Below are positions 1 through 57,433 of a stretch of 64,000 bases of DNA, piece after piece. Positions within the stretch are counted from its first letter, which is position 1. Each line of letters begins with the position of its first letter. The notes under the pieces are model-generated. The model worked only from the letters and a program-made list of their open reading frames with translations, was not told the origin of the DNA and did no database searches. The stretch comes from an uncultured Chloroflexia bacterium (GTDB lineage Bacteria; Chloroflexota; UBA6077; JACCZL01). The DNA lies in contig CAVXYC010000014.1 in assembly GCA_963765765.1 (NCBI GenBank), forward strand, positions 160,001-224,000, given 5' to 3'. Position numbers and translations under genes: made by a program.

Positions 1-1527
1 AACGTGCGAGGCGGATTGAACCAAGGGCCCCGACTCGTCAATGGCACCGTTCTCGAGTAATCGCGCCTGCACGCGATTGTATGAGCGAGCGTCCAGCCCC
101 AGACGAGTCCGCAGCTCCTCCCTGGGCATACCTGAACGGAGTGGGTACGTTTCATGATATTGATTGAGTACGGCGGCGGCCCGGCTGGCGAGAAGCTCCC
201 ACCCTGAGCGGCTTATCAGCAGTGTAGATGGCAGCAGTCCCGCATCGACGCTGTCCAATGCGAACACGTCACCGGACTTGATCAGGTCCGCGACAACGCT
301 CCGAGCATCCTCCGCGGCGAGGCCAGCGCGCGATAGCACATCACGGAGCTCAGCGGGCTCTCGTGATCGCAGCTGCTGCAGCACGATGTCTTCGGGCGCT
401 CCCAGCTCGAGAACCTGCAGGCGCTCCAGGACGGGCTCTTGAAAACGGCGATGGCGCCGCGCGTGCGGCTCAATGATCACCCCGCCCCCAACGGTTTGCG
501 CAGGCGTGAGCAAGCGCACCACAAAGAGATCTCCCTTGCCCACAGCGACGGGCCGCTTGAGCCGAATCTGGGCCATGCCATCATCGCCTGGAGACAGCTC
601 GTTTGAGTCCAGCAGGGCAACCTTCCCAACAGACTCGGAGCTTCCTGTGTGAAACGTGATCTCATCGTTGTGGCGCAGATTGCGAGCTCCCTGGCGGACC
701 ATCTTGAGACGCACGTCTAGGAGTCGCGTCGCCGTGAGCGCACCCGGTGCGGACAGGACCTCGCCCCGCTCGAGCTCATCAGTACTAACCGCGGAGATAT
801 TCACCGCGACGCGCGTGCCAGCCGGCGCTGAGTCCACCTTGTGCTTATGCGATTGCAGGCCGCGTACTCGCGCACGCAATCCGCTTGGTACGATCTCCAG
901 CTCATCACCTCGATGCAGAGCTCCATCAATGAGCGTTCCGGTCACTACAGTGCCAAAACCCGCAACCGTAAACACTCGATCGATCGGCAACCGGGGAGCT
1001 CCCGAGCTAGGTCTGGTCCGTTCCTGAGCTAGAAGCGAGTCGAGCGTCGAGGTGAGGACGTCAAGCCCCGCTCCGGTAGTCGACGAGACCGGAATCAACG
1101 GCGCATGGTCGAGAGATGAGCCCTTCAGGCCTTCCTCGATCTCGGCGAGCACGAGGTCGAGCCAATCAGGCTCCACCAGGTCGGTCTTGGTGACGGCCAC
1201 CACGCCGGTGGAGATATTCAACAGATCAAGGATGTCAACATGCTCGCGGGTCTGGGGCATGATGCCCTCATCGGCGGCAATGACAAGAAGGGCGATGTCG
1301 ATACCGCCGACACCGGCGAGCATGTTATGAACGAATCGCTCATGCCCTGGCACGTCCACAATGCTGACCTCCATGCCGCTTGGCAATCGTAGCCAGGCGA
1401 AGCCAAGGTCGATTGTCATGCCCCGCTCTTTCTCCTCGCGCAACCGATCCGGATCGATTCCGGTCAATGCGCGGATAAGAGTGGACTTGCCATGATCTAC
1501 GTGGCCGGCCGTTCCAATGACTCGCAA
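1..1527 (-). CDS. selB: Selenocysteine-specific translation elongation factor SelB (3' end runs off the window; absent from the ORF track)
   Basis: Reverse strand from TTG at 1527 reads [46 protein letters not shown]...VDVPGHERF; lies directly downstream of selA. Confidence 0.95.
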
Positions 1528-1590
1528 GATCCAGTTACTCCCCGGCCAGCAGCGAAGCACGAAGAAGGTGAACGGTGGCCGGCAAGATCG

Positions 1591-2970
1591 CTAGTCTCCG
1601 CCGATGCCGATTATTGCCTGAACGATCTCACCGTCCTCAGACGGATCAACGGTTCGTAGATCAAGCACGACTTTGTCGTCTTCGATTCGTCCAACAATGG
1701 AGGGACTCCTCCGACGCAGGCGTCCGGCAAGCTCGGTGGCGCCCATCCCGGGTACTGAGATGCGGATTAGTCGAGTAGGAAGCGTCTCCTCCGGAAGCGC
1801 TCCACCACCGATCGCCGTCCGACCATCGCTCACCTCGGCTCGAACACTGGCGCTCGGACACGCCGCCAGAATGCCGTCGGCGCGCCCCTGAAGCTCGGAA
1901 ACTGTCGTTGAGATCATTCGCCAGACCGGAATGGAACGCGTCGCGCTCCCGTCTATGTATTCAGTAAGCGTTGCCGCCAACGCCGCGATCGTGAGCTTGT
2001 CCGGCCGTAGGGCGCGCATGAGAGGGTGACGTTTGAGTCGCTGTACGAGATCCGCCCGACCCACGACGATGCCGGCCTGTGGGCCGCCCAGCAGCTTGTC
2101 ACCGGAGAAGCACACCAGGTCTACTCCCGCCGCTATTGAAGCCTGAACCGTTGGCTCCGTGGGTACTCCAAAAGGCGCGCTGTCGATCAATGAGCCACTG
2201 CCAAGGTCCTCAATCACCGGAATATCGTGCGATCTGGAAATACTCACGAGCTCCTCGAGTGTCGGTCGGTGCGTGAAGCCAATGACCCGAAAGTTACTCG
2301 AATGTACGCGCATAACCGCAGCCGTATCAGGTCCCACGGCTGATGCATAGTCGTGCGCGTACGTACGATTCGTGGTGCCCACTTCGACAAGTCGCGCGCC
2401 GCTCTGCTCCAGAACGTCTGGGATGCGAAACCCGCCGCCAATCTCTACGAGCTCGCCCCGCGAAATGACGACCTCGTGGCCGGCAGCAAGCGCTGCGAGG
2501 ACCAGCAGAACAGCGGCAGCATTGTTATTGACGACCACACTCGCGGGAGCCCCGGTAAGGCGTGCCAGCAACTCACCACAATGCTCATGGCGGGAGCCAC
2601 GGCGTCCAGGCTCCAGCTCGTATTCCAGGTTTGAATAACCTCGCCCGGCTTCCTGGACGGCATTCAATGCTCGAGTCGAGAGCGGCGCTCGCCCCAGGTT
2701 TGTATGAATGATCACACCGCTCGCGTTGATTACCTGCCGAAGACGCGATCGGATCGTGCCTTCTTTGCGTCTCCCTAGCTCAAGGGCGAGTGACTCCAGC
2801 GATGGAGCAGGCTCTCCCAGGCGAATTCTCGCCCGAGCAGACTCGAGCACCTCGCGAGCCAGCGCGACATCGATTGGGTGGGCCTGACCGTTGCCAGACC
2901 CATTGAGCCCCGCGGCAATGAGGCGCTCAACACTAGGCAGAGATCGGAGCGCGTCGGAGACAGCCACCAT
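1591..2970 (-). CDS. selA: L-seryl-tRNA(Sec) selenium transferase
   Basis: Motifs VINASGVIIHTNLGRAPL, VVNNNAAAV, SRGELVEIGGGFRIP, FSGDKLLGGPQAG. Start placed at ATG 2970 (MVAVSDALRSLPSV); ORF track extends to 3027. Confidence 0.96.
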   Translation of the reverse strand: MVAVSDALRSLPSVERLIAAGLNGSGNGQAHPIDVALAREVLESARARIRLGEPAPSLESLALELGRRKEGTIRSRLRQVINASGVIIHTNLGRAPLSTRALNAVQEAGRGYSNLEYELEPGRRGSRHEHCGELLARLTGAPASVVVNNNAAAVLLVLAALAAGHEVVISRGELVEIGGGFRIPDVLEQSGARLVEVGTTNRTYAHDYASAVGPDTAAVMRVHSSNFRVIGFTHRPTLEELVSISRSHDIPVIEDLGSGSLIDSAPFGVPTEPTVQASIAAGVDLVCFSGDKLLGGPQAGIVVGRADLVQRLKRHPLMRALRPDKLTIAALAATLTEYIDGSATRSIPVWRMISTTVSELQGRADGILAACPSASVRAEVSDGRTAIGGGALPEETLPTRLIRISVPGMGATELAGRLRRRSPSIVGRIEDDKVVLDLRTVDPSEDGEIVQAIIGIGGD

Positions 2971-3081
2971 GGTGAGATGATGATACTCCGCATGCCGAAC
3001 AGCCGAGAGAGACCAACGAGACATCAAGAACTACTGGGACACCGGATACGTCCCAACAGTCTTGGTGTGCCTTACGTCCCT

Positions 3082-44646: not shown

Positions 44647-45919
44647 ATGACGTCACCAATCGCAGGTACGGACCCGCACTCGGGAAAGCCGAGGGAGCTG
44701 TTCAACGTCTTGCCGCCGCCGGACGCGTTACGTCGCCTCCTCGAGCACCTCCCCACCCGCCAGGCAGCCGAGCACATTCGAACCGCTGATGCGCTTGACC
44801 GCGTGCTTGCCGAAGACCTCGTCTCGCCCGAGGATCTTCCATCGTTTCCGCGTTCCACGATGGATGGGTTCGCCGTCCGCGCCGCCGATACGTACGGTGC
44901 CAGTGAAGGGCTACCCGCGTACCTGGACATCGTGGGCGAAGTGCTCATGGGTCGCAGCCCAAGCGTCACACTGAATGTTGGTGAGGCTGCCCGCATTGCC
45001 ACCGGCGGCATGGTGCCCGCGGGCGCCGATGCCGTGGTGATGATTGAGCAGACGCAGGAAGCATCTGGTTCGCTCGTCGAGGTTCTGCGACCCGTTGCCG
45101 TAGGCGAGAACGTGATCCAGATCGGCGAGGACGTCACGCGCGGCGCCCCCTTATTGGCGCGTGGCCACACCCTGCGGTCCCAGGACATCGGTGGATTGCT
45201 GGCCATGGGCGCAACTGAAGTCCCCGTAGCCAGAAAGGCGCGCGTCGCCATCATCTCCAGCGGAGATGAGGTTGTGGCACCGGATCAAGCGCCCGCGCCC
45301 GGGCCAGATTCGGGACATCAACAGTTACACACTCGCGTCGTTGGTGCGGCGCGCAGGACACGACCCAGACATCCTTGGCATCGTCCCGGACGTCTACGAG
45401 CAGCTCGAGGAGGCGGCTCAGCACGCCTTGCGAGATCACGACATGCTGATCCTTTCCGCCGGCAGCTCGGTCAGCACGCGTGATATGACCGCGGACGTCA
45501 TCGCCTCACTGGGCTCGCCCGGGGTGCTCGTGCACGGTGTCTCTCTCAGGCCAGGAAAGCCAACCATTCTGGCTGTGGCGGATGGCAAACCGGTGTTCGG
45601 CCTACCCGGCAACCCGGTCTCGTGCATGGTGACCTTCGACCTGTTCGTAGCGCCCTCGCTCGCCCATATCACCGGTCAGACCGAGGTCCCGCGTATCACC
45701 CGTCGGGCACGATTGACGAAAAACATCGCATCCGCATCGGGGCGTGAGGACTACGTGCAGGTGCGACTTACAGAGCGTGATGGCGAGCCATGGGCGGACC
45801 CGGTCTTCGGCAAATCCAACCTGATCTACACACTCGTCCGCTCCGATGGCATGGTGAAAGTGGAGCTGAATCAGGGAGGACTGGTGGAGGGCGCATGGGT
45901 GGATGTGATCCTGTTCTGA
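44647..45919 (+). CDS. moeA: Molybdopterin molybdotransferase (gephyrin/Glp) (frameshift near 45300)
   Basis: RSTMDGFAVR, IATGGMVPAGADAVVMIE, SSGDE, QIRDIN, PGKPT, LPGNPVS, GREDYV. Confidence 0.93.
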
Positions 45920-45994
45920 GCCACGTCTGCCGCGGCGGGGCGCTCACAGAAGTAGGTGCTGTTGTCCAGGGAGCGTCTGACGGTCTGTTCACGA

Positions 45995-46105
45995 GGGGAC
46001 CCCACCCCGGCCCTCCCCGCTGCGGCAGGGAGGGAGCGTCGTTTACGGTAAACACGAGCTCCGGCTCCTCCTGCCGCAGCGGGGAGGGCTGGGGTGGGGT
46101 TCCCC
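45995..46105. repeat. REP-like inverted doublet (CCCCACCCCGGCCCTCCCC family)
   Basis: ACCCCACCCCGGCCCTCCCCGCTGCGGCAGG ... CCTGCCGCAGCGGGGAGGGCTGGGGTGGGGT; a related single unit lies near 19964-19998. Confidence 0.7.
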
Positions 46106-46209
46106 CGCAAGGTTGCTACGGTCTGAAGCACGTATACCTACCTCACTTCTCCCACCAAGTAAAGCCTCAGCCGGTCGTCGCTTTCACTCGAACGAATCGA
46201 TTACGGACC

Positions 46210-48132
46210 ATGCACGGTAAGCCGTACCTCGAAGACATTCCGCTAGACGAGGCGCGCAGGCGCCTCGATGGAGCGCTCAACCGCGCAGGCGGCGCCCTGA
46301 TGTCGGGTGAAGTCATACCGCTCCAGGAGGCCCTCGGGCGCGTCACTGCCGAGCCAGTGTGGGCAGCTATCTCGTCGCCGCACTATCACGGCGCCGCGAT
46401 GGACGGCGTAGCGGTCAGGGCGCTCGAGACACTGGGCGCTACGGAGTCGCACCCCCTCGCACTCACACTGGGCCGCCAGGCGCACTGGGTGGACACCGGC
46501 GACCCGCTCCCTGAAGGTACGGACGCGGTCATCATGTTGGAGCATCTCCAGCAGATCGGCCACGAGGCGGTGGAGATCATGGCTGCCGTGCCGCCGTGGC
46601 AGCATGTGCGCTCCATGGGTGAGGACATCGTTGCCACGGAGCTGGTCTTGCCACAGGGTCATCTTTTGCGCCCGGCCGACCTGGGAGCCATCGCCGCGTG
46701 TGGCAATACGTCGGTGACGGTTCGCCGCAAACCACGCGTCGCCATCATGCCAACGGGCACCGAGCTCGTCCCGCCAAGTCCGGATGTCAAGCCAGGCGAG
46801 ATCATCGAGTTCAATTCGCTCATCCTGGCCGGCCAGATTACCGAGTGGGGCGGAATCCCAACCCGCCTGCCGGTGACGACCGATGATCGCGCGGCGCTTC
46901 GCGCGCGGCTCGTCGAGGCAGTTGACCAGCATGACGTGGTTCTGGTCAACGCGGGTTCTTCGGCGGGATCGGAAGACTACACGGCAGGCCTGGTGGAGGA
47001 GCTGGGCGAGCTTCTGGTCCATGGAGTGGCCGTGCGTCCGGGGCATCCTGTCATCCTGGGTGTCATCCAGGGCAAGCCAGTGATCGGGATTCCCGGCTAC
47101 CCGGTGTCGGCGACGCTCACCAACGATCTCTTTGTGCGACCACTGATGGCGCGGCTCCTGGGAATCCAGCCCACGGCCCGCCCCCGTCGCACCGCCACGA
47201 TGACTCGCAAGGTGCTCTCGCCCATGGGTGAAGACGAGTTCTTGCGCGTGAACCTCGGTGTTGTAGGCGGCAAGACGATGGCAACGCCGCTCCAGCGCGG
47301 CGCCGGCGTGATCATGTCGCTGGTTCGTGCCGACGGCATCGTGACCCTCCCACGCTTCTCCGAAGGGGTGCACGCCGGACAGGAAGTAGAAGTTGAGCTC
47401 TTCCGAACGCCGGAAGAGATCGAGCGCACGATCGTCGTCATTGGAAGCCACGATCTCACGCTCGACCTCATCTCCAGCGAGCTCGCCGTACGAGCGGGCG
47501 GGCTGAGCCTCTCATCCTCGAACGTCGGCAGCCTGGGCGGGCTGCTCGCGCTACAGCGAGGTGAAGCGCATCTGGCAGGATCTCATCTTCTGGACGAAGA
47601 GACCGGCGAGTACAACTTTTCCTACATTCGGAAATACATCCCGAATCTCCCCGTGACCGTGGTCAATCTGGTCTTCCGTGAGCAAGGTCTGATCGTACCG
47701 CGAGGCAATCCTCAGGAGCTCGCCCAGGTGCAGGATTTAGCACGCGAAGGCATTCGCTTCGTGAATCGTCAGCGCGGGTCCGGAACGCGAGTGCTCCTGG
47801 ACTATCGACTCAAGGAGCTGGGCATCGATCCGTCGAGCATCGATGGCTACGACCGCGAAGAGTTCACGCACCTGATGGTGGCGGCTTCAGTGGCCGGCAG
47901 TACCGCCGATGTCGGCCTGGGCATTCTGGCCGCGGCGCGCGCGCTGAACCTTGACTTTATCCCGCTGCTCCAGGAGCGTTACGACCTCATCATCCCAACC
48001 GAGCACTATGAAAGCGATCTGCTCCAGCCGCTGCTGGCACTCATTCGCGACGTATCATTCCAATCGCGCGTCGAGGCCCTCGGAGGGTACGACACGTCCC
48101 GTATGGGGCAAGTCATAAGGAGTGATGAGTGA
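46210..48132 (+). CDS. MoeA fused to a PBP/LysR-substrate-binding-like domain
   Basis: AAMDGVAV, PTGTE, PGHP, PGYPVSA, then IGSHD, VGSLGGL, AGSHLLD, FVNRQRGSGTRVLLD, ERYD; start placed at ATG 46210. Confidence 0.92.
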   Translation: MHGKPYLEDIPLDEARRRLDGALNRAGGALMSGEVIPLQEALGRVTAEPVWAAISSPHYHGAAMDGVAVRALETLGATESHPLALTLGRQAHWVDTGDPLPEGTDAVIMLEHLQQIGHEAVEIMAAVPPWQHVRSMGEDIVATELVLPQGHLLRPADLGAIAACGNTSVTVRRKPRVAIMPTGTELVPPSPDVKPGEIIEFNSLILAGQITEWGGIPTRLPVTTDDRAALRARLVEAVDQHDVVLVNAGSSAGSEDYTAGLVEELGELLVHGVAVRPGHPVILGVIQGKPVIGIPGYPVSATLTNDLFVRPLMARLLGIQPTARPRRTATMTRKVLSPMGEDEFLRVNLGVVGGKTMATPLQRGAGVIMSLVRADGIVTLPRFSEGVHAGQEVEVELFRTPEEIERTIVVIGSHDLTLDLISSELAVRAGGLSLSSSNVGSLGGLLALQRGEAHLAGSHLLDEETGEYNFSYIRKYIPNLPVTVVNLVFREQGLIVPRGNPQELAQVQDLAREGIRFVNRQRGSGTRVLLDYRLKELGIDPSSIDGYDREEFTHLMVAASVAGSTADVGLGILAAARALNLDFIPLLQERYDLIIPTEHYESDLLQPLLALIRDVSFQSRVEALGGYDTSRMGQVIRSDE

Positions 48133-51763: not shown

Positions 51764-52100
51764 GGACCGTGGAGGAAGCGCGACCGCTCTCTGGATCTCA
51801 CGATTCGGGGAGAGGAAAGTCCAGACAGCGCAGAGCAGGGTGCCCGGTGTAAGCCGGGGTCGGGCAACCGATAGCTAGAGCCACAGAGACTATGACCCGG
51901 GGCGCACGTCCGCGAGGACGGCGCTGCTGGGGGTGAAAAGGGTAATCCTCCCCGCTGCAACCCCAAGCATGACCGCTGAAGCTGCTCGCTAAGGTCAGGG
52001 TAGGGGGCACCCCAACGCAGGTTGGGGGCAGGCGCGGCAACGCGCTTCGCAGATAGATGGTCGCATCCAACAAAATCTGGCTTACTCTCCTCCGCGGTCC
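51764..52100 (+). ncRNA. rnpB: RNase P RNA (lacks P13/P14, Chloroflexota-like)
   Basis: GAGGAAAGUCCAGA ... AACAAAAUCUGGCUUAC (P4), CACAGAGA, GGUGAAA, AGAUAGAU; P1 GGACCGUGGAGGA/UCCUCCGCGGUCC; P8 and P9 with GUAA and GCAA loops. Confidence 0.95.
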
Positions 52101-52385: not shown

Positions 52386-53594
52386 GTGTTGTTTCGATCT
52401 CTCAACCGCCGTCTAACCAGGGTCTGCCTAGGCGCTCCGCGGATCGCAATTTCCATGGGGCTTTCCCTTTTTGGCCTGGCAGCCGTGCCAATGGGACCCG
52501 CCGCCGCGGCCGGTATCGGCGCAGATCCGGCCCTCGTCTCGTCGGCGCGCTTGCCGATTGGCCCCCTGCAAATAGACGAACCGACGCTTGAGGGCCAGGA
52601 TGCTCCGATCGAGGAGACAGCTTCCCCGACCCCGGTTGAAACGGCTACAGACTCTGTGCCCGCGCCTCCTGCTGAGGCCGCGGCGCCCTCGGCACCCGCG
52701 CCTCCTGAAGCTAACTCATCCCCGGCGGCATCGATAGAGACCGCGGCAGCAACCCCTAATCCAGCCGTATCACGACCCCAGTTTGGTGTTGGAAAATACA
52801 CCGTGTCAAAAGGTGACACGCTGTTCTCGATCGCTCGAAAGGCTGAGTTGAGTCTCGCCGTCCTCAGCTCGATAAACAACATCTCGGACCCGAGCTCGGT
52901 CAAAGTTGGGCAGACGCTCTACATTCCCGCGCGGCCGGGGAGCGTGTACGTTGCCGCCAGGGGTGACTCCGTCCAATCCGTTGCCGACAAGTACCAGACA
53001 AAAATCGACGCCATCCGCGAGGCGAACGGACTTAATAACGATGCACAGCTTGGGGCCGGCCAGCTCGTCCTAATCCCTGGCGTTGTCCAGGCCAGCGCCG
53101 CTATCAAACCCATCACTGCCGCAACGCCTCGATCAATCTCTTCCCAGGGGGGAGTCTCGCCACTCCCTGCGCCGAAGTCCGCTCAGGCCCCGCCCGTGGC
53201 TACCGCGGCGCTGGCAAAGTCGCCGCAGGGTAGTGGAGACACGTTGATCTGGCCAGTGTCAGGTCCAATTTCGACGAACTTTTCGCCAACACACCGCGGA
53301 CTCGACATCGTTGCCAACCAGGGTGTCCCGGTGAAATCAGCACTGGCCGGCCGAGTTGTAGGCGCCGCGGAAGGAGATGGCCCCTATGGTTGGTACGTCA
53401 TCGTGGAGCACGGCGGCACCTTCACTTCGGTCTACGCGCATCTCAGCAAGATTCGGGTCAAAGTCGGTGACGTCGTAGAGAAAAGCCAGATCGTCGGTGA
53501 GGTCGGAACCACTGGCCAGTCAACAGGGTCGCATCTCCACCTCGAGCTTCGCCAGAACAACGTTCCCATCGATCCCCGTCCTTATCTGCCGTAG
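52386..53594 (+). CDS. LysM-repeat M23 family metallopeptidase
   Basis: YTVSKGDTLFSIA and a second LysM; HRGLD, YAHL, TGSHLHLE; start uncertain. Confidence 0.9.
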   Translation: MLFRSLNRRLTRVCLGAPRIAISMGLSLFGLAAVPMGPAAAAGIGADPALVSSARLPIGPLQIDEPTLEGQDAPIEETASPTPVETATDSVPAPPAEAAAPSAPAPPEANSSPAASIETAAATPNPAVSRPQFGVGKYTVSKGDTLFSIARKAELSLAVLSSINNISDPSSVKVGQTLYIPARPGSVYVAARGDSVQSVADKYQTKIDAIREANGLNNDAQLGAGQLVLIPGVVQASAAIKPITAATPRSISSQGGVSPLPAPKSAQAPPVATAALAKSPQGSGDTLIWPVSGPISTNFSPTHRGLDIVANQGVPVKSALAGRVVGAAEGDGPYGWYVIVEHGGTFTSVYAHLSKIRVKVGDVVEKSQIVGEVGTTGQSTGSHLHLELRQNNVPIDPRPYLP

Positions 53595-53723
53595 CGAACG
53601 AGCTCGCAGTTAAGAGTTGAGAGCTCACTGGCGACAGTCGTCTCCGCCTGTGGACCGTTTACTGTGAACTATCAACCGTGATCTCACTGATATACTGCCC
53701 CCATCCACGCTGAGGAGCCCTCT

Positions 53724-54350
53724 ATGACTCAGACATCGAACCCGAGCACGAGCTCGGAGAAGGTTGCCTTCTATTTCGACCCCACTTGACCATGGGCCTG
53801 GCGAACTGCCGATTGGATTCGGCAGGTTCGTCGGGTGCGCCCCGTGGAGGTGCGCTGGCAGCTCTTCAGTCTTGAGGAGATCAACAAAGGCGACGGTGAG
53901 GTTGATTGGAATGGAGGAAGAAGTGCGCCCGTACTACGGGTCATTGCACTCGTCCGACGTAAGCACGGGAACGACGCCGTAGACCGACTGTACGACGCGC
54001 TTGGCCAGGCTCGTTTTCGCAATGAGAAGGTTTACGCTGACGAGGGTGTTGTTGAAGCAGCCCTTGAAGCTGCCGGACTCGATCCGGCGCTGAAGGCGCA
54101 GGCTCTGGCTGACGATTCGACGCGTGAAGAAGTGCTAGAAGAGCACAACGAGATCGTGAAGCGGCTGGGGACCTTCGGTGTTCCGACGATCGTGCTCGAC
54201 GACAACACTGGGCCTGGAATGTTCGGCCCCGTCATCGCCAGTGTGCCCGAGGGCGAGGCAGCAGGAGAGATGTGGGATCATTTCCTGTGGATGACACGCC
54301 AGACTGAGTTCTACGAAATCAAGCGCTCACGTCCCCCGGCAAGGCACTAG
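53724..54350 (+). CDS. Selenoprotein: DsbA-fold, Rv2466c-like oxidoreductase with Sec at codon 22 (UGA at 53787-53789)
   Basis: GAGGAG RBS; MTQTSNPSTSSEKVAFYFDPT-U-PWAWRTADWIRQVRRVRPVEVRW, in frame with ORF 53835-54350 (FGVPT, FGPV, FYEIKRSR); UGA aligns with the catalytic Cys of FDPxCPW. Confidence 0.82.
53796..53836 (+). promoter_or_regulatory. SECIS-like hairpin
   Basis: GCCUGGCGAA-CUGCCGA [UUGGAU] UCGGCAG-g-UUCGUCGGGU; G-containing apical loop about 23 nt 3' of the UGA. Confidence 0.7.
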
Positions 54351-54430
54351 GGCTTCGACCAGAGAAGGGGTAAGAGTTCACAGTTGAATCGAGGAGACTG
54401 CTCCCTCACCTATCACACAACTGTGAACTC

Positions 54431-56098
54431 TTAACTCTTAACCAAGAGCATCCTCGAGCGCAGCTCCTGGGCGTTGGGTAACACGCGCACTAGCAGCGGG
54501 TCAGTTCGCCCACGAACCTCCACCTCACGAACCTCGAAGCCGCTCAAATCCACATCTGCCCGGGCGGCAACGTCCTCTGAGACGATGAGCTGGCTTTTCA
54601 TCTCCTTGTTCATCGACTCCAGACGGCTCGCGGTATTGACCGCGTCCCCAATGGCCGTAAACGTCCGCGCTGTGCCGTACCCCATCTCACCCACGATGAC
54701 TGGCCCCATGTGGACACCCAGACCGATACGCAGCGGCTCCTGCAAATCGATCTGAAGCTCGGCGTTGAGCGCGTCGAGGCTCTCGGACATGGCCAACGCT
54801 GCCCGAAGCGAGTCTCGACATCCCTCAGCAGGGCCGTTGTGAATGCCAAAGAGCGCCATCACGCCGTCGCCGATGAATTTATCGAGATGACCGCCTGAGC
54901 GCTCAACAGCCTCACCCATGGCGGCGAAGTAGCGATTGAGCAGGAACACGACGTCATAGGGGAACCGATGCTCGGCGAGCTGCGTGAACGATCTGATATC
55001 CGCAAAGAGGATCGCAATGTCTTTCTCTGCACCGAGCGTCAGCGAAGGACGAACCAGGCCTTCCGTTGGACCAATGGACCACGGTACCAGGGGAAAGACC
55101 GCGACGTCGGAAATAGGCCGAAGCTGGCAAGCCAATCGAACGTTTGGCGGCGCCCCAATTCGCTGAAGCGCACCGGCCTCATAGGTCGACGGCTGGGGCA
55201 AGAGGTCCTTTCCATCGGCAATGCGCAATCTGCAGGTCGTGCACCGTCCACGCCCACCACAAATGGACGCGTGGGGAATGCCTGCTGATCGACTTGCCTC
55301 TAGCACCGTCATGCCACGCGGAATGACAACTCTGCGTCCTGCAGGATACGTCAAGCGCACCACGCCCTTGCGGCGCTGCAGGACTGAGCGAACCCAACGG
55401 CCAATGAACACGCTGGCAGCCACAACTACGAAGATACCCACGGCGACATTTGCCCAGCCCAGCACCGTGTTGTTCTGCTCTTCGATTCCGATTGGAAACG
55501 TCGTCGAACGCCAGGTCGGATCGTCCGAGAGTGCCCCAAACGTTCGGCCTGCGTGGAAGAAGCCGAGCAAGCCGAAGACAGGAAGTAAGAGGGCCGTGGA
55601 CCTCAACCAGGGCACGGCCTTCGGATACCAGGGTCTGAAGCGTAGCCAGAAATGAACGCCCATGCTGCCGTGGGCCCAGGCCAGAACGAGCAACAGCGAC
55701 TGCAGAATGACCGACTCGGGATGCTCCACCCACATCCCAGCCACAACGTACGCATATGAGTCGTTCACACCGTAGGTCGCGCTCAGTACCCTGGTGCCGA
55801 AAATGTGGGGAATCAGGAACACGGGCATCAACAGCCCCATGACAAGTCGAACGATCTCCCATCGAGGCAAGCGGAGATGACGCCGTCTATACAGCGCCAT
55901 AAGCACCAGCGCAACATGGACGATCAGTGACGAGTAGAGAAGGAGGCTCCCCAGCGGGCTCCGCCAGATGAGTAAGAACACCTGTCGCCCGCGCTCCAAG
56001 AGCTCCACCGAAATAAGGCCGAGCGAATGGTTGATGAAATGCGTCGCCACGAAGACGAACAAGACCAGTCCCGACCAGAGACGAAGTCGATGTTCCAT
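54431..56098 (-). CDS. CyaC-like class III adenylate/guanylate cyclase with cytochrome-b-like membrane domain and 2Fe-2S ferredoxin
   Basis: His-bearing TMs (THFINHSLG, HV.L, PHIFGTR, WAHG.MGVH), CGGRGRCTTCR...RLACQ, FADIRSFT, DKFIGDGVMA, IGDAVNTASRLE. Confidence 0.9.
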   Translation of the reverse strand: MEHRLRLWSGLVLFVFVATHFINHSLGLISVELLERGRQVFLLIWRSPLGSLLLYSSLIVHVALVLMALYRRRHLRLPRWEIVRLVMGLLMPVFLIPHIFGTRVLSATYGVNDSYAYVVAGMWVEHPESVILQSLLLVLAWAHGSMGVHFWLRFRPWYPKAVPWLRSTALLLPVFGLLGFFHAGRTFGALSDDPTWRSTTFPIGIEEQNNTVLGWANVAVGIFVVVAASVFIGRWVRSVLQRRKGVVRLTYPAGRRVVIPRGMTVLEASRSAGIPHASICGGRGRCTTCRLRIADGKDLLPQPSTYEAGALQRIGAPPNVRLACQLRPISDVAVFPLVPWSIGPTEGLVRPSLTLGAEKDIAILFADIRSFTQLAEHRFPYDVVFLLNRYFAAMGEAVERSGGHLDKFIGDGVMALFGIHNGPAEGCRDSLRAALAMSESLDALNAELQIDLQEPLRIGLGVHMGPVIVGEMGYGTARTFTAIGDAVNTASRLESMNKEMKSQLIVSEDVAARADVDLSGFEVREVEVRGRTDPLLVRVLPNAQELRSRMLLVKS

Positions 56099-56322
56099 AG
56101 GCGCAATACTACGCATGTCCGGGGTAGGACGCTAGCTGGACCAACCCACAGTCAAGGTCGATACGCGGGCTCACCTACGGGACAATGTCACCTTCGTCCC
56201 CCCACCGCGCGTGGCCTCATGTTGTCACCAATGGCGCTCCCAAATCCGTCGAAGCCGTGCCTTCACGTTCCGAGGATCAAGGAGACAGCGCTAAAGTGCT
56301 TAACTACAAACCGGCTGGCGGC

Positions 56323-57394
56323 TTAGGTGCCCGCGAACACGATACTGACCGGGCTGCCAATCTCGACAATCTGACCCGTTGGAGTGAGGGTGCCGCTCCC
56401 GCCGTCCACGCGGAACGTGACGATGGTGTCCGTGGCCTGGTTCGCGGCGTAGAGCAGGCCGCCGTCCGGGGACAGCGCGAAAAAGCGCGGCTGCTTTCCC
56501 TGTGTCGGTTCCCAGGCTACGGGGGACAGCTTGCCGGTCGCGTCGTCCACCTGGAAGATCGCAATGGTGTTGTGCCCCCGATTTGAGACATAGACGAACT
56601 TCCCGGATGGCGCGATCTGGATCTCGGCTGTGGTGTTCACCTCCGAGAAGTCCCTCGGCAGCGTCGTCTGCACATCCAGCTCGTCAAGCTGGCCAGTCGC
56701 CGTATCGTAGGCGAACGTCGTGACGGTCGAGCTCAGTTCGTTGCATTGGTAGGCAAACGCGCGATTCGGATGGAACGCCAGGTGTCGCGGTGCGGCGCCG
56801 GAGGCCGCCACGATGGAGCCCTGGGCCGACGGAACAATCTTGCCGTTTGCGGGGTCCACCCGAAACACGTAAGTACGGTCGTGGCCCTTGTCCGGCACGA
56901 TGAAGTGATTGCCGGCTCGGATCAGCCGGTATATGGTGAGGATGGGACGATTCCTGACCGGGGTGCGGACCATGCGTTCCGACCAACGTGACGATGTCGC
57001 TCAGAGAACCGAGCGAGCCGTCCGGGTTCACCGGTAGCGCCGAGACCTTGCCAGCATAGTAGCCAGCCACCACCGCAAATGGCATGTTGGGCAAGATCGT
57101 GATGGCGACCGGGTTTGCGCTACCGCAGTCCTGTGAGTTGAGCTTCGTCAGCGTGCCACTCGCGGCGTCTCTCGCGAACGCGCTGACGGTAGTAAGATCG
57201 TTACCGCCATGGACGCTGTAGAGATGTTCCTGGCTGGCATCGACGGTCAACCACGACGGGTTGACAACATCCTCCACGCACTGGACGTGAGTCCAGGCGC
57301 CGCTATCGCAATCCATCTCGAAGACCTCGATGCCTTTGCCACGGCCATCCCGATCCGGCGTGGTGTAACAGCCCACATAGGCGTACGTCGCCAT
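56323..57394 (-). CDS. Lactonase family beta-propeller (YbhE-type 6-phosphogluconolactonase-like) (frameshift near 56925)
   Basis: YVGCYT, NPSWL, SHPHH, PRHLAFHP, NELSSTV, YVSNRGHNTI, PRFF. Confidence 0.88.
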
Positions 57395-57433
57395 AATGTT
57401 CCCTCCAATCAAGAGCTTCATCCGCTTCAGGTT

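Follow-up and report, generated by a model that had tools for sequence, protein, structure and literature searches.

A predicted Rv2466c-type selenoprotein encoded across an in-frame UGA codon in a Chloroflexota genome

Rv2466c (mycoredoxin-2) and the Corynebacterium glutamicum proteins NCgl2339 and NCgl2478 belong to the DsbA-Mrx1 cluster, for which a C-P-W/F-C motif is described as the signature; in Rv2466c the nucleophile is Cys19 and the resolving cysteine Cys22 (PMC8280269). Selenoproteins described as "DsbA-like" were predicted from the Sargasso Sea in 2005 (COG2761, UxxC, 9 sequences; PMC1088965), are reported from several genomes (PMC1794560) and were divided in the Global Ocean Sampling (GOS) survey of 2008 into DsbA 1 (UxxC, 63 sequences), DsbA 2 (UxxC, 18) and DsbA 3 (UxxV, 5) (PMC2398784). 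A 2026 review distinguishes form 1 (PF01323, UxxC) from form 2 (DxxUP) and describes their functions as uncharacterised; the text of this review contains none of the terms PF22234, UxxA, Chloroflex or mycothiol (PMC13188914), and our literature search found no paper joining Rv2466c with selenocysteine (Sec, U). Here we report on a 64,000-nucleotide stretch of DNA from an uncultured Chloroflexota bacterium (the window), in which the gene at 53724-54350 (+) reads through a UGA at 53787-53789. Judged from its sequence, this UGA is very probably a Sec codon at the catalytic position, and the gene a genuine selenoprotein gene of the Rv2466c type with a cytoplasmic DsbA fold. An earlier note, made from the letters of this DNA alone, had proposed such a gene and stated that DsbA-like selenoproteins had been predicted before; they have indeed been in print since 2005, and the UxxV form since 2008 (PMC1088965, PMC2398784).

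The predicted protein shares with Rv2466c, NCgl2339 and NCgl2478 the Pfam family (PF22234) and the fold, the active-site context FDPx-[C/U]-PW at the start of helix alpha1, a predicted cytoplasmic location with no hydrophobic leader, and the first active-site residue, which is all that the monothiol route described for those enzymes needs. It differs in its identity to Rv2466c of only ~32%, in carrying Sec in place of the nucleophilic Cys and Ala in place of the resolving Cys, and in its host, which belongs to the Chloroflexota rather than the Actinobacteria; any dependence on mycothiol is conjectural here, where no msh gene scores over its cut-off. In common with the published DsbA-like selenoproteins it has the DsbA fold (PF01323), a redox motif that begins with Sec and a hairpin downstream of the UGA, and it resembles DsbA 3 of the GOS survey in lacking Cys at the fourth motif position. 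As far as descriptions alone can set them apart, those families are UxxC or UxxV whereas this protein is UxxA, with UxxC relatives in sister clades; unlike the ocean-metagenome families, it comes from a soil Chloroflexota source and its best family is PF22234, not PF01323. This kind of selenoprotein is thus already known, with its function predicted only, and what is specific here is a soil Chloroflexota clade with a Sec majority, a Cys-free U-P-W-A protein, close Sec/Cys pairs and a systematic truncation in public annotation.

The read-through gene and the selenocysteine machinery of its host

The full coding sequence (53724-54350, +) begins at an ATG six bases downstream of a Shine-Dalgarno-like GAGGAG (53712-53717, +; read from the letters) and ends at TAG 54348-54350; translated with TGA as U, it encodes 208 residues with Sec at codon 22. 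A single in-frame TGA lies between start and stop, in the context VAFYFDPT-U-PWAWR, and the N-terminal part of the read-through product is MTQTSNPSTSSEKVAFYFDPT-U-PWAWRTADWIRQVRRVRPVEV. The frame is open from the ATG through the TGA into the annotated open reading frame (ORF), in agreement with the start and the good ribosome-binding site proposed in the earlier note, and the N-terminus MTQT... is common to the same-genus ortholog L017 and to the Cys forms P0002 and P0004. As that note also stated, the mechanical ORF list places the start at 53835, and it holds for this gene only a shortened ORF of 171 residues (GTG 53835 to 54350, +). The motif is U-P-W-A without a resolving Cys, as had been claimed, and the claim was understated, for the 208-residue product contains no Cys at all. 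A promoter and terminator scan of 53400-54600 found none.

The protein, with C put in for U, matches PF22234 (Rv2466c-like) at 119.7 bits (2.1e-34, residues 21-201; cut-off 27); it also matches PF01323 (DSBA) at 50.4 bits (3e-13; cut-off 25.6), and no NCBIfam model matches it. A phmmer search of PDB sequences reached 1e-28 to Rv2466c structures (4nxi, 4zil and the C22S mutant 5xur), and in the alignment to 4nxi U22 pairs with the first Cys of FWFDPLCPWCW. This agrees with the proposal that the UGA sits at the attacking Cys of the FDPxCPWC motif of Rv2466c, in which Cys19 is described as the nucleophile (PMC8280269). The AlphaFold2 model has a mean predicted local distance difference test score of 94.5 and a predicted template modelling score of 0.89 (51-sequence alignment). 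Strand beta1 spans residues 12-18 and helix alpha1 residues 23-38, so that residue 22 caps helix alpha1, as in thioredoxin-fold active sites; the annotated 171-residue product would be without beta1 and the active-site helix alpha1. When the model was searched against the PDB with Foldseek, the ten best chains were all Rv2466c or its M. leprae homologue (template modelling score 0.73-0.84), with classical DsbA structures at far lower rank. The signal peptide and C-P-H-C motif of the classical periplasmic DsbA oxidase are both absent, the N-terminus MTQTSNPSTSSEK having no hydrophobic stretch and the motif being UPWA. The C-P-W/F-C dicysteine signature of the DsbA-Mrx1 cluster is absent as well (U-P-W-A, no other Cys); this signature is narrower than the Pfam family PF22234, since the Cys relatives in Chloroflexota are mostly CPWA, not CPWC.

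The genes selA, selB and selD and a tRNA with a UCA anticodon are all present in the genome that holds the window (6.49 Mb, 33 contigs, 91.8% complete, 6.9% contamination). As the earlier note had observed, selA and selB lie in the window itself: selA at 1591-3027 (-), with 472.7 bits to the SelA profile, and selB at 1-1560 (-), running off the window start as part of a 651-residue open frame whose SelB wing-3 domain (69.6 bits) falls just outside. The two genes share a head-to-tail arrangement and are separated from the selenoprotein gene by about 50 kb. selD is found on another contig (G000:C21:109702-110619, 381.6 bits) and, because of its one in-frame TGA, is read as a selenoprotein gene itself. 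A whole-genome ARAGORN scan gave a single tRNA-SeC on contig C15; its anticodon is tca and its variable arm is long. The host had been guessed to be a member of the Chloroflexota, in line with which the closest named record is a Chloroflexota metagenome-assembled genome (MAG; 84% identity, also TGA).

Sec/Cys alternation and the hairpin downstream of the UGA

We collected 111 loci, 30 of them from 61 related genomes (21 of which had a match at E <= 1e-10), 80 from metagenome contigs and 1 from a search of genome contigs, which was made with a single protein as query and gave this locus only. At the active-site column 26 loci have TGA and 78 have TGC or TGT, and 7 gave no call, being partial or outside the "codon then Pro" rule. 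The 23 loci at least 60% identical to the window protein divide into 16 with TGA and 7 with Cys, and the peptide on either side of the column is conserved (AFYFDPx-[U/C]-PWAWR). The alternation of Cys and TGA with conservation on both sides, to which the earlier note had looked as a check, is thus found at exactly this column. In a sample of the phylum, an Rv2466c-like match at E <= 1e-30 is present in 70 of 401 genomes and Sec was verified in 6, two of which (G106 and G117; loci L137 and L136) belong to another Chloroflexota family and carry Sec in FWTDPL-U-PWAWR; three rows of this sample marked "1 TGA" are Cys forms with TGA as the terminal stop.

A tree of 86 distinct rows was built (IQ-TREE quick search, LG+G4, with Shimodaira-Hasegawa-like approximate likelihood ratio test support, SH-aLRT; midpoint root for drawing only), after setting aside 17 duplicates, 1 short row and the 7 no-call loci. 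The clade of the window gene has an SH-aLRT of 99 and comprises 13 Sec and 4 Cys rows, with the Cys rows in three places: L018, which is sister to the Sec form L019; L052; and the pair L048/L049, which is CPWC and sister to the window gene plus L017. Parsimony over the whole tree gives 8 Sec/Cys changes, of which at least 5 are forced by the starred branches. From these counts we infer that Sec is probably ancestral in this clade, with the root placed at the midpoint for drawing. Further Sec groups are L077/L082 (UPWAWQ), L035 (UPYV) and, with UPWC, L078 as well as L081-L085, L101 and L115. Among the 13 Sec orthologs, 7 have no Cys in the stretch that starts 7 residues ahead of the active site and extends to the C-terminus, and the remainder have scattered Cys with no second Cys conserved; the Sec ortholog L020, from the unpublished genome G006, is included in this count, in the census, in the energy statistics and in the tree, and is left out of the hairpin alignment described below.

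The nearest relatives of the U-P-W-A protein outside its own genus are C-P-W-C forms at 72% identity (L048, L049; P0002, P0004). In L048/L049 the change from Sec to Cys is accompanied by a new resolving Cys at position four of the motif, which is one event only. Such close natural pairs, namely the sister rows L019 and L018 on short branches and the window's UPWA gene beside the CPWC forms, offer a way to ask what selenium buys the enzyme.

Selection on the reading frame can be followed in close-strain contigs (95-99% alike) from 4 public runs of 4 studies, 2 of RNA libraries and 2 of DNA, which together cover spans from about 53624 to about 54362; these limits are not read as transcript ends. 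All cover 53787-53789, with no other letter reported there. Of the 26 strain differences, 1 falls in the 5' leader; the other 25 are within the gene, all of them at third codon positions, among them 53741, which precedes the TGA, and 53792 and 53822, which follow it but lie before the annotated GTG. This pattern of substitutions shows that purifying selection acts on the reading frame both before and after the UGA. The metagenome contig L047 encodes an identical protein and keeps the TGA; the independent assemblies (the 4 runs and L047) therefore read TGA, not the TGC or TGT that a base-call error, raised as a concern in the earlier note, would have hidden.

The UGA is followed, within the coding sequence, by a SECIS-like hairpin (SECIS, selenocysteine insertion sequence). 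Its core lies at 53797-53835 (+), as defined by RNA folding and an alignment of 13 orthologs, and has 16 pairs, a single bulged G and an apical loop at 53813-53818 with the sequence UUGGAU; the whole predicted stem-loop, with an outer helix of 7 pairs (53790-53796 with 53841-53847), spans 53790-53847 (+). The hairpin with a G-containing loop reported in the earlier note is therefore borne out, and its length of about 17 bp is amended to 16 pairs plus a bulge. RNA 53780-53850 has a folding energy of -38.3 kcal/mol, compared with a mean of -27.2 kcal/mol for dinucleotide shuffles (z = -3.3); 2 of 200 shuffles reach this energy or a lower one. When 13 distinct Sec forms are aligned without gaps (core columns 20-35 with 42-58), 89.9% of the cells of the core helix (53797-53812 with 53819-53835) are paired, and its 16 pairs include 7 that are invariant, 5 that vary on one side yet stay paired and 1 that changes on both sides (C-G, A-U, U-G, all at synonymous third positions). 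For the whole structure 86.6% of cells pair, versus 36-47% when the partners are slid by 1-3 columns, and the covariation score was reached by 2 of 500 shuffles. The RNAalifold consensus of the Sec orthologs consists of a 10-pair lower stem and a 3-pair upper stem with an apical loop; the outer helix, 79.1% paired in relatives, is outside this consensus fold. The conservation of the hairpin, which had been named as a point to check, extends to all 13 aligned Sec forms, with an invariant GG in the loop.

The mean folding energy of the 66 nucleotides from the codon is -36.7 kcal/mol in the Sec clade (n=13) versus -26.4 kcal/mol in Cys forms of less than 60% identity (n=56), and ranges from -15.7 to -40.2 kcal/mol in the four close Cys forms, one of which, L018, has lost several pairs of the hairpin. 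Two other Sec groups have a hairpin loop on the same UGGAU; in L077/L082 the stem is a different one, with the loop on the same UGGAU codons. Bacterial SECIS elements are described as stable stem-loops that directly follow the UGA and have a small loop containing G (PMC1088965), a description that the hairpin in the window fits.

Several observations weigh against reading the UGA as Sec. The best genomic match of the Rfam tRNA-Sec model (RF01852), just over its cut-off, is called tRNA-Ser(gct) by ARAGORN and was dropped as a candidate, while for the tRNA-SeC called by ARAGORN the highest-scoring model is the general tRNA one (33 bits). When 53700-53900 was scanned with Rfam at E up to 10, two chance-level matches and no SECIS family came up. 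The covariation is modest, as only 1 of 23 pairs changes on both sides, a count equalled by 212 of 500 shuffles. The hairpin also encodes the conserved peptide AWRxADWIRQVRRVRP, and therefore part of its conservation is protein constraint and nucleotide conservation by itself is weak evidence; the useful evidence from the hairpin is the pair-preserving pattern together with the contrast with Cys forms. Even this contrast is incomplete, because the Cys ortholog L052 = L053 (CPWA, TGT) retains the hairpin, with the folding energy of -40.2 kcal/mol, so that the hairpin is not exclusive to Sec forms; this ortholog looks like a recent replacement of Sec by Cys with a "fossil" SECIS. Contigs from RNA libraries over the gene do not prove transcription, and the identity of residue 22 as Sec is predicted here from sequence and a structure model.

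Set against the reading as Sec are three other accounts of the same codon. The TGA could be a true stop, with the 171-residue protein from GTG 53835 functional and the 63-nucleotide upstream frame an untranslated or separately translated leader, which is what a standard ORF call returns and how 63 of the 70 closest database clusters, among the matches listed, are annotated. We regard this as very improbable, given that the model, which is a confident one, puts beta1 and alpha1 of the fold outside the shortened product, that the peptide encoded by the 21 upstream codons is conserved whether a form has Sec or Cys (AFYFDP), that the strain differences ahead of the GTG are all third-position, and that the Cys homologues read straight through the same column. 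TGA is one base away from TGC and TGT, so that it could come from a nonsense mutation in a pseudogene or from a mistake in sequencing or assembly; this is hardly credible in view of TGA in 26 loci from separate genomes and metagenomes, in contigs of 4 runs from 4 studies and in G106 and G117 of another family, and of the purifying selection acting downstream of the TGA. Finally, an open frame taken by itself would equally suit a genome-wide reassignment of TGA to Trp or Gly. However, TGA is not reassigned, since the orthologs L017, L018 and L019 terminate at TGA; in addition, homologues have Cys at this column rather than Trp or Gly, the Sec machinery in the genome is complete, and the lactonase frame at 56323-57423 has six TGAs in non-coding-looking sequence, so that we give this account almost no weight.

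Proposed chemistry and thiol partner

Rv2466c and NCgl2478 are described as reducing mycothiolated mixed disulfides by a monothiol mechanism that uses the first Cys only, and among NCgl2478 mutants C24S, which lacks the resolving Cys, is reported to be slightly faster whereas C21S is dead (PMC6178380, PMC8280269). For the protein in the window an intramolecular selenenylsulfide is impossible, because it has no Cys. We propose that SelB with Sec-tRNA would bind the hairpin at 53797-53835 and insert Sec at the UGA, after which the selenolate would attack a mixed disulfide in which a low-molecular-weight thiol is joined to a protein or small molecule; the target of the selenolate might also be an oxidant. 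An enzyme Se-S-thiol intermediate would thereby form and, as there is no resolving Cys, a second free thiol molecule would resolve this adduct. By analogy with Rv2466c and NCgl2478, we give such mono-selenol reductase chemistry along the monothiol route roughly even chances; it is the best-supported functional reading, with a peroxidase-like cycle as its main functional rival.

The gene neighbourhood of relatives bears on this question. At six distinct orthologous loci (L018 = L050 = L051, L019, L021, L052 = L053, L058 and L059) the gene lies between two conserved neighbours on one strand: upstream a CMD/AhpD-like gene (PF02627, 24.7-25.1 bits, cut-off 23) and downstream an MDMPI_N/DinB_2/SCP2 gene (PF11716, 1e-16 to 9e-19), of a thiol-dependent enzyme family. 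In the genome of the window the neighbours are an M23/LysM peptidase gene upstream and a convergent Fer2-adenylate cyclase gene downstream; they are common only to the same-genus locus L017 and uninformative as to function.

If the selenoprotein were to act chiefly in peroxide reduction, it would be a thiol-dependent selenoperoxidase whose Se-OH is recycled by two thiols, as in glutathione peroxidase. Such a cycle would suit a protein whose sole redox residue is one Sec with no resolving Cys, and the nucleophilic Cys of NCgl2478 is described as being oxidised to a sulfenic acid that reacts with mycothiol (PMC8280269). The CMD/AhpD-like neighbour of the orthologs (24.7 and 25.1 bits) belongs to a family linked to peroxide defence and points the same way, although these matches are weak and the neighbour is missing in the window's own genus. 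No member of the family is reported as a peroxidase in the accessible parts of PMC6178380 and PMC8280269, and overall we consider a primary role as a peroxidase possible but unlikely. Rv2466c is also described as a mycothiol-dependent nitroreductase that activates a prodrug (PMC6178380), which raises the prospect of a selenoprotein acting chiefly as a nitro- or xenobiotic reductase. According to the same source, however, prodrug nitroreduction by Rv2466c proceeds by a dithiol mechanism (PMC6178380), and as the second Cys that this needs is absent here, we judge such a role to be rather improbable.

A thiol partner would be required by the mono-selenol reductase chemistry preferred here. No member of the Chloroflexota is known to produce mycothiol, and PMC2922099 contains nothing relevant to the point. 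In the window's own genome three genes have a mycothiol enzyme as their best NCBIfam family, each below its cut-off: MshA (402 bits versus a cut-off of 462.5, next family 155), Mca (223 of 277) and MshB (214 of 224). The MshA-like gene is at G000:C20:218863-220083 and an MshB/Mca-like gene at G000:C30:110056-110868. An MshC-like gene (G000:C15:647956-649146) encodes a 400-residue paralog of cysteinyl-tRNA synthetase (CysRS) without the C-terminal part of the cysS profile; its score is 386 with cysS and 347 with MshC, whose cut-off is 485. The genome has another CysRS-like gene at a different place. Against mycothiol as the partner stand the lack of any mycothiol gene over its curated cut-off and the failure to find MshD (best 23 bits) or BshC, all in this 91.8% complete genome, as well as the absence of the two conserved neighbours from the window's own genus. 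The MshA-like gene was also tried out as an indicator that a mycothiol-like pathway accompanies the Rv2466c-like gene, and was rejected as too widespread; as it is present in 270 of the 401 sampled Chloroflexota genomes, in none of them over the cut-off, compared with 70 of 401 for the Rv2466c-like gene, it is not specific to the Rv2466c-like protein. A mycothiol-related compound as thiol partner is a lead, not a finding.

It is tempting to speculate that a mycothiol-like redox system of soil Chloroflexota is centred on the Cys-free U-P-W-A protein and depends on its selenium. In such a system a single selenol would act, with a thiol of the Cys-GlcN-inositol type, in de-thiolation and/or peroxide reduction. 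The MshA-, MshB/Mca- and MshC-like genes would supply this thiol without MshD, and Sec would be the ancestral state in the clade, replaced again by Cys at least three times, once with a resolving Cys gained (CPWC, L048/L049, sister to the window gene). Taken as a whole, we think this scenario decidedly doubtful. The protein offers a handle on the low-molecular-weight thiol of these bacteria.

Public annotation and other features of the window

A search of 5.8 billion proteins gave 389 matches at E <= 1e-10, and the cluster counts that follow are drawn from the best 120 of these 389. Among the matches listed there are 70 clusters at least 61% identical to the window protein, of which 7 are full length with Cys (CPWC in P0002 and P0004; CPWA in P0005-8 and P0010). 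The other 63 are 141-178 residues long and begin with MRQVR.VRPVEV, with VRPVEV or a few residues later, just past the hairpin, and one of them is a "DsbA family protein" of NCBI from a Chloroflexota MAG. From the DNA of sampled loci we infer that these 63 short clusters are probably Sec forms. That standard annotation would truncate the protein, as the earlier note expected, is thus seen across most of the closest clusters, which start after the active site. Reading the UGA as Sec would correct this annotation error on a large scale, and would add a soil Chloroflexota clade to the DsbA-like selenoproteins, whose functions are predicted only.

Among the other features of the window, the convergent neighbour of the selenoprotein gene (54431-56116, -) encodes 561 residues in which an adenylate/guanylate cyclase domain comes after a 2Fe-2S ferredoxin domain, an arrangement that hints at a redox-sensing cyclase. 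Beyond it lies a lactonase-type gene (PF10282; 56323-57421, -) that looks split: a 216-residue ORF (56323-56973) matches profile positions 152-344 only, its own frame contains many TGAs upstream, and the ORF that overlaps it (56684-57421) is in a different frame, which may reflect a frameshift or an assembly error. Upstream of the selenoprotein gene, by about 1.6 kb, is a bacterial class A RNase P RNA (51768-52100, +; 127 bits, Rfam gathering score 100). Further upstream, a MoeA fusion of 780 residues (45790-48132, +) combines molybdopterin molybdenumtransferase domains with a C-terminal PBP_like domain of the periplasmic-binding type (PF12727, 256.6 bits).

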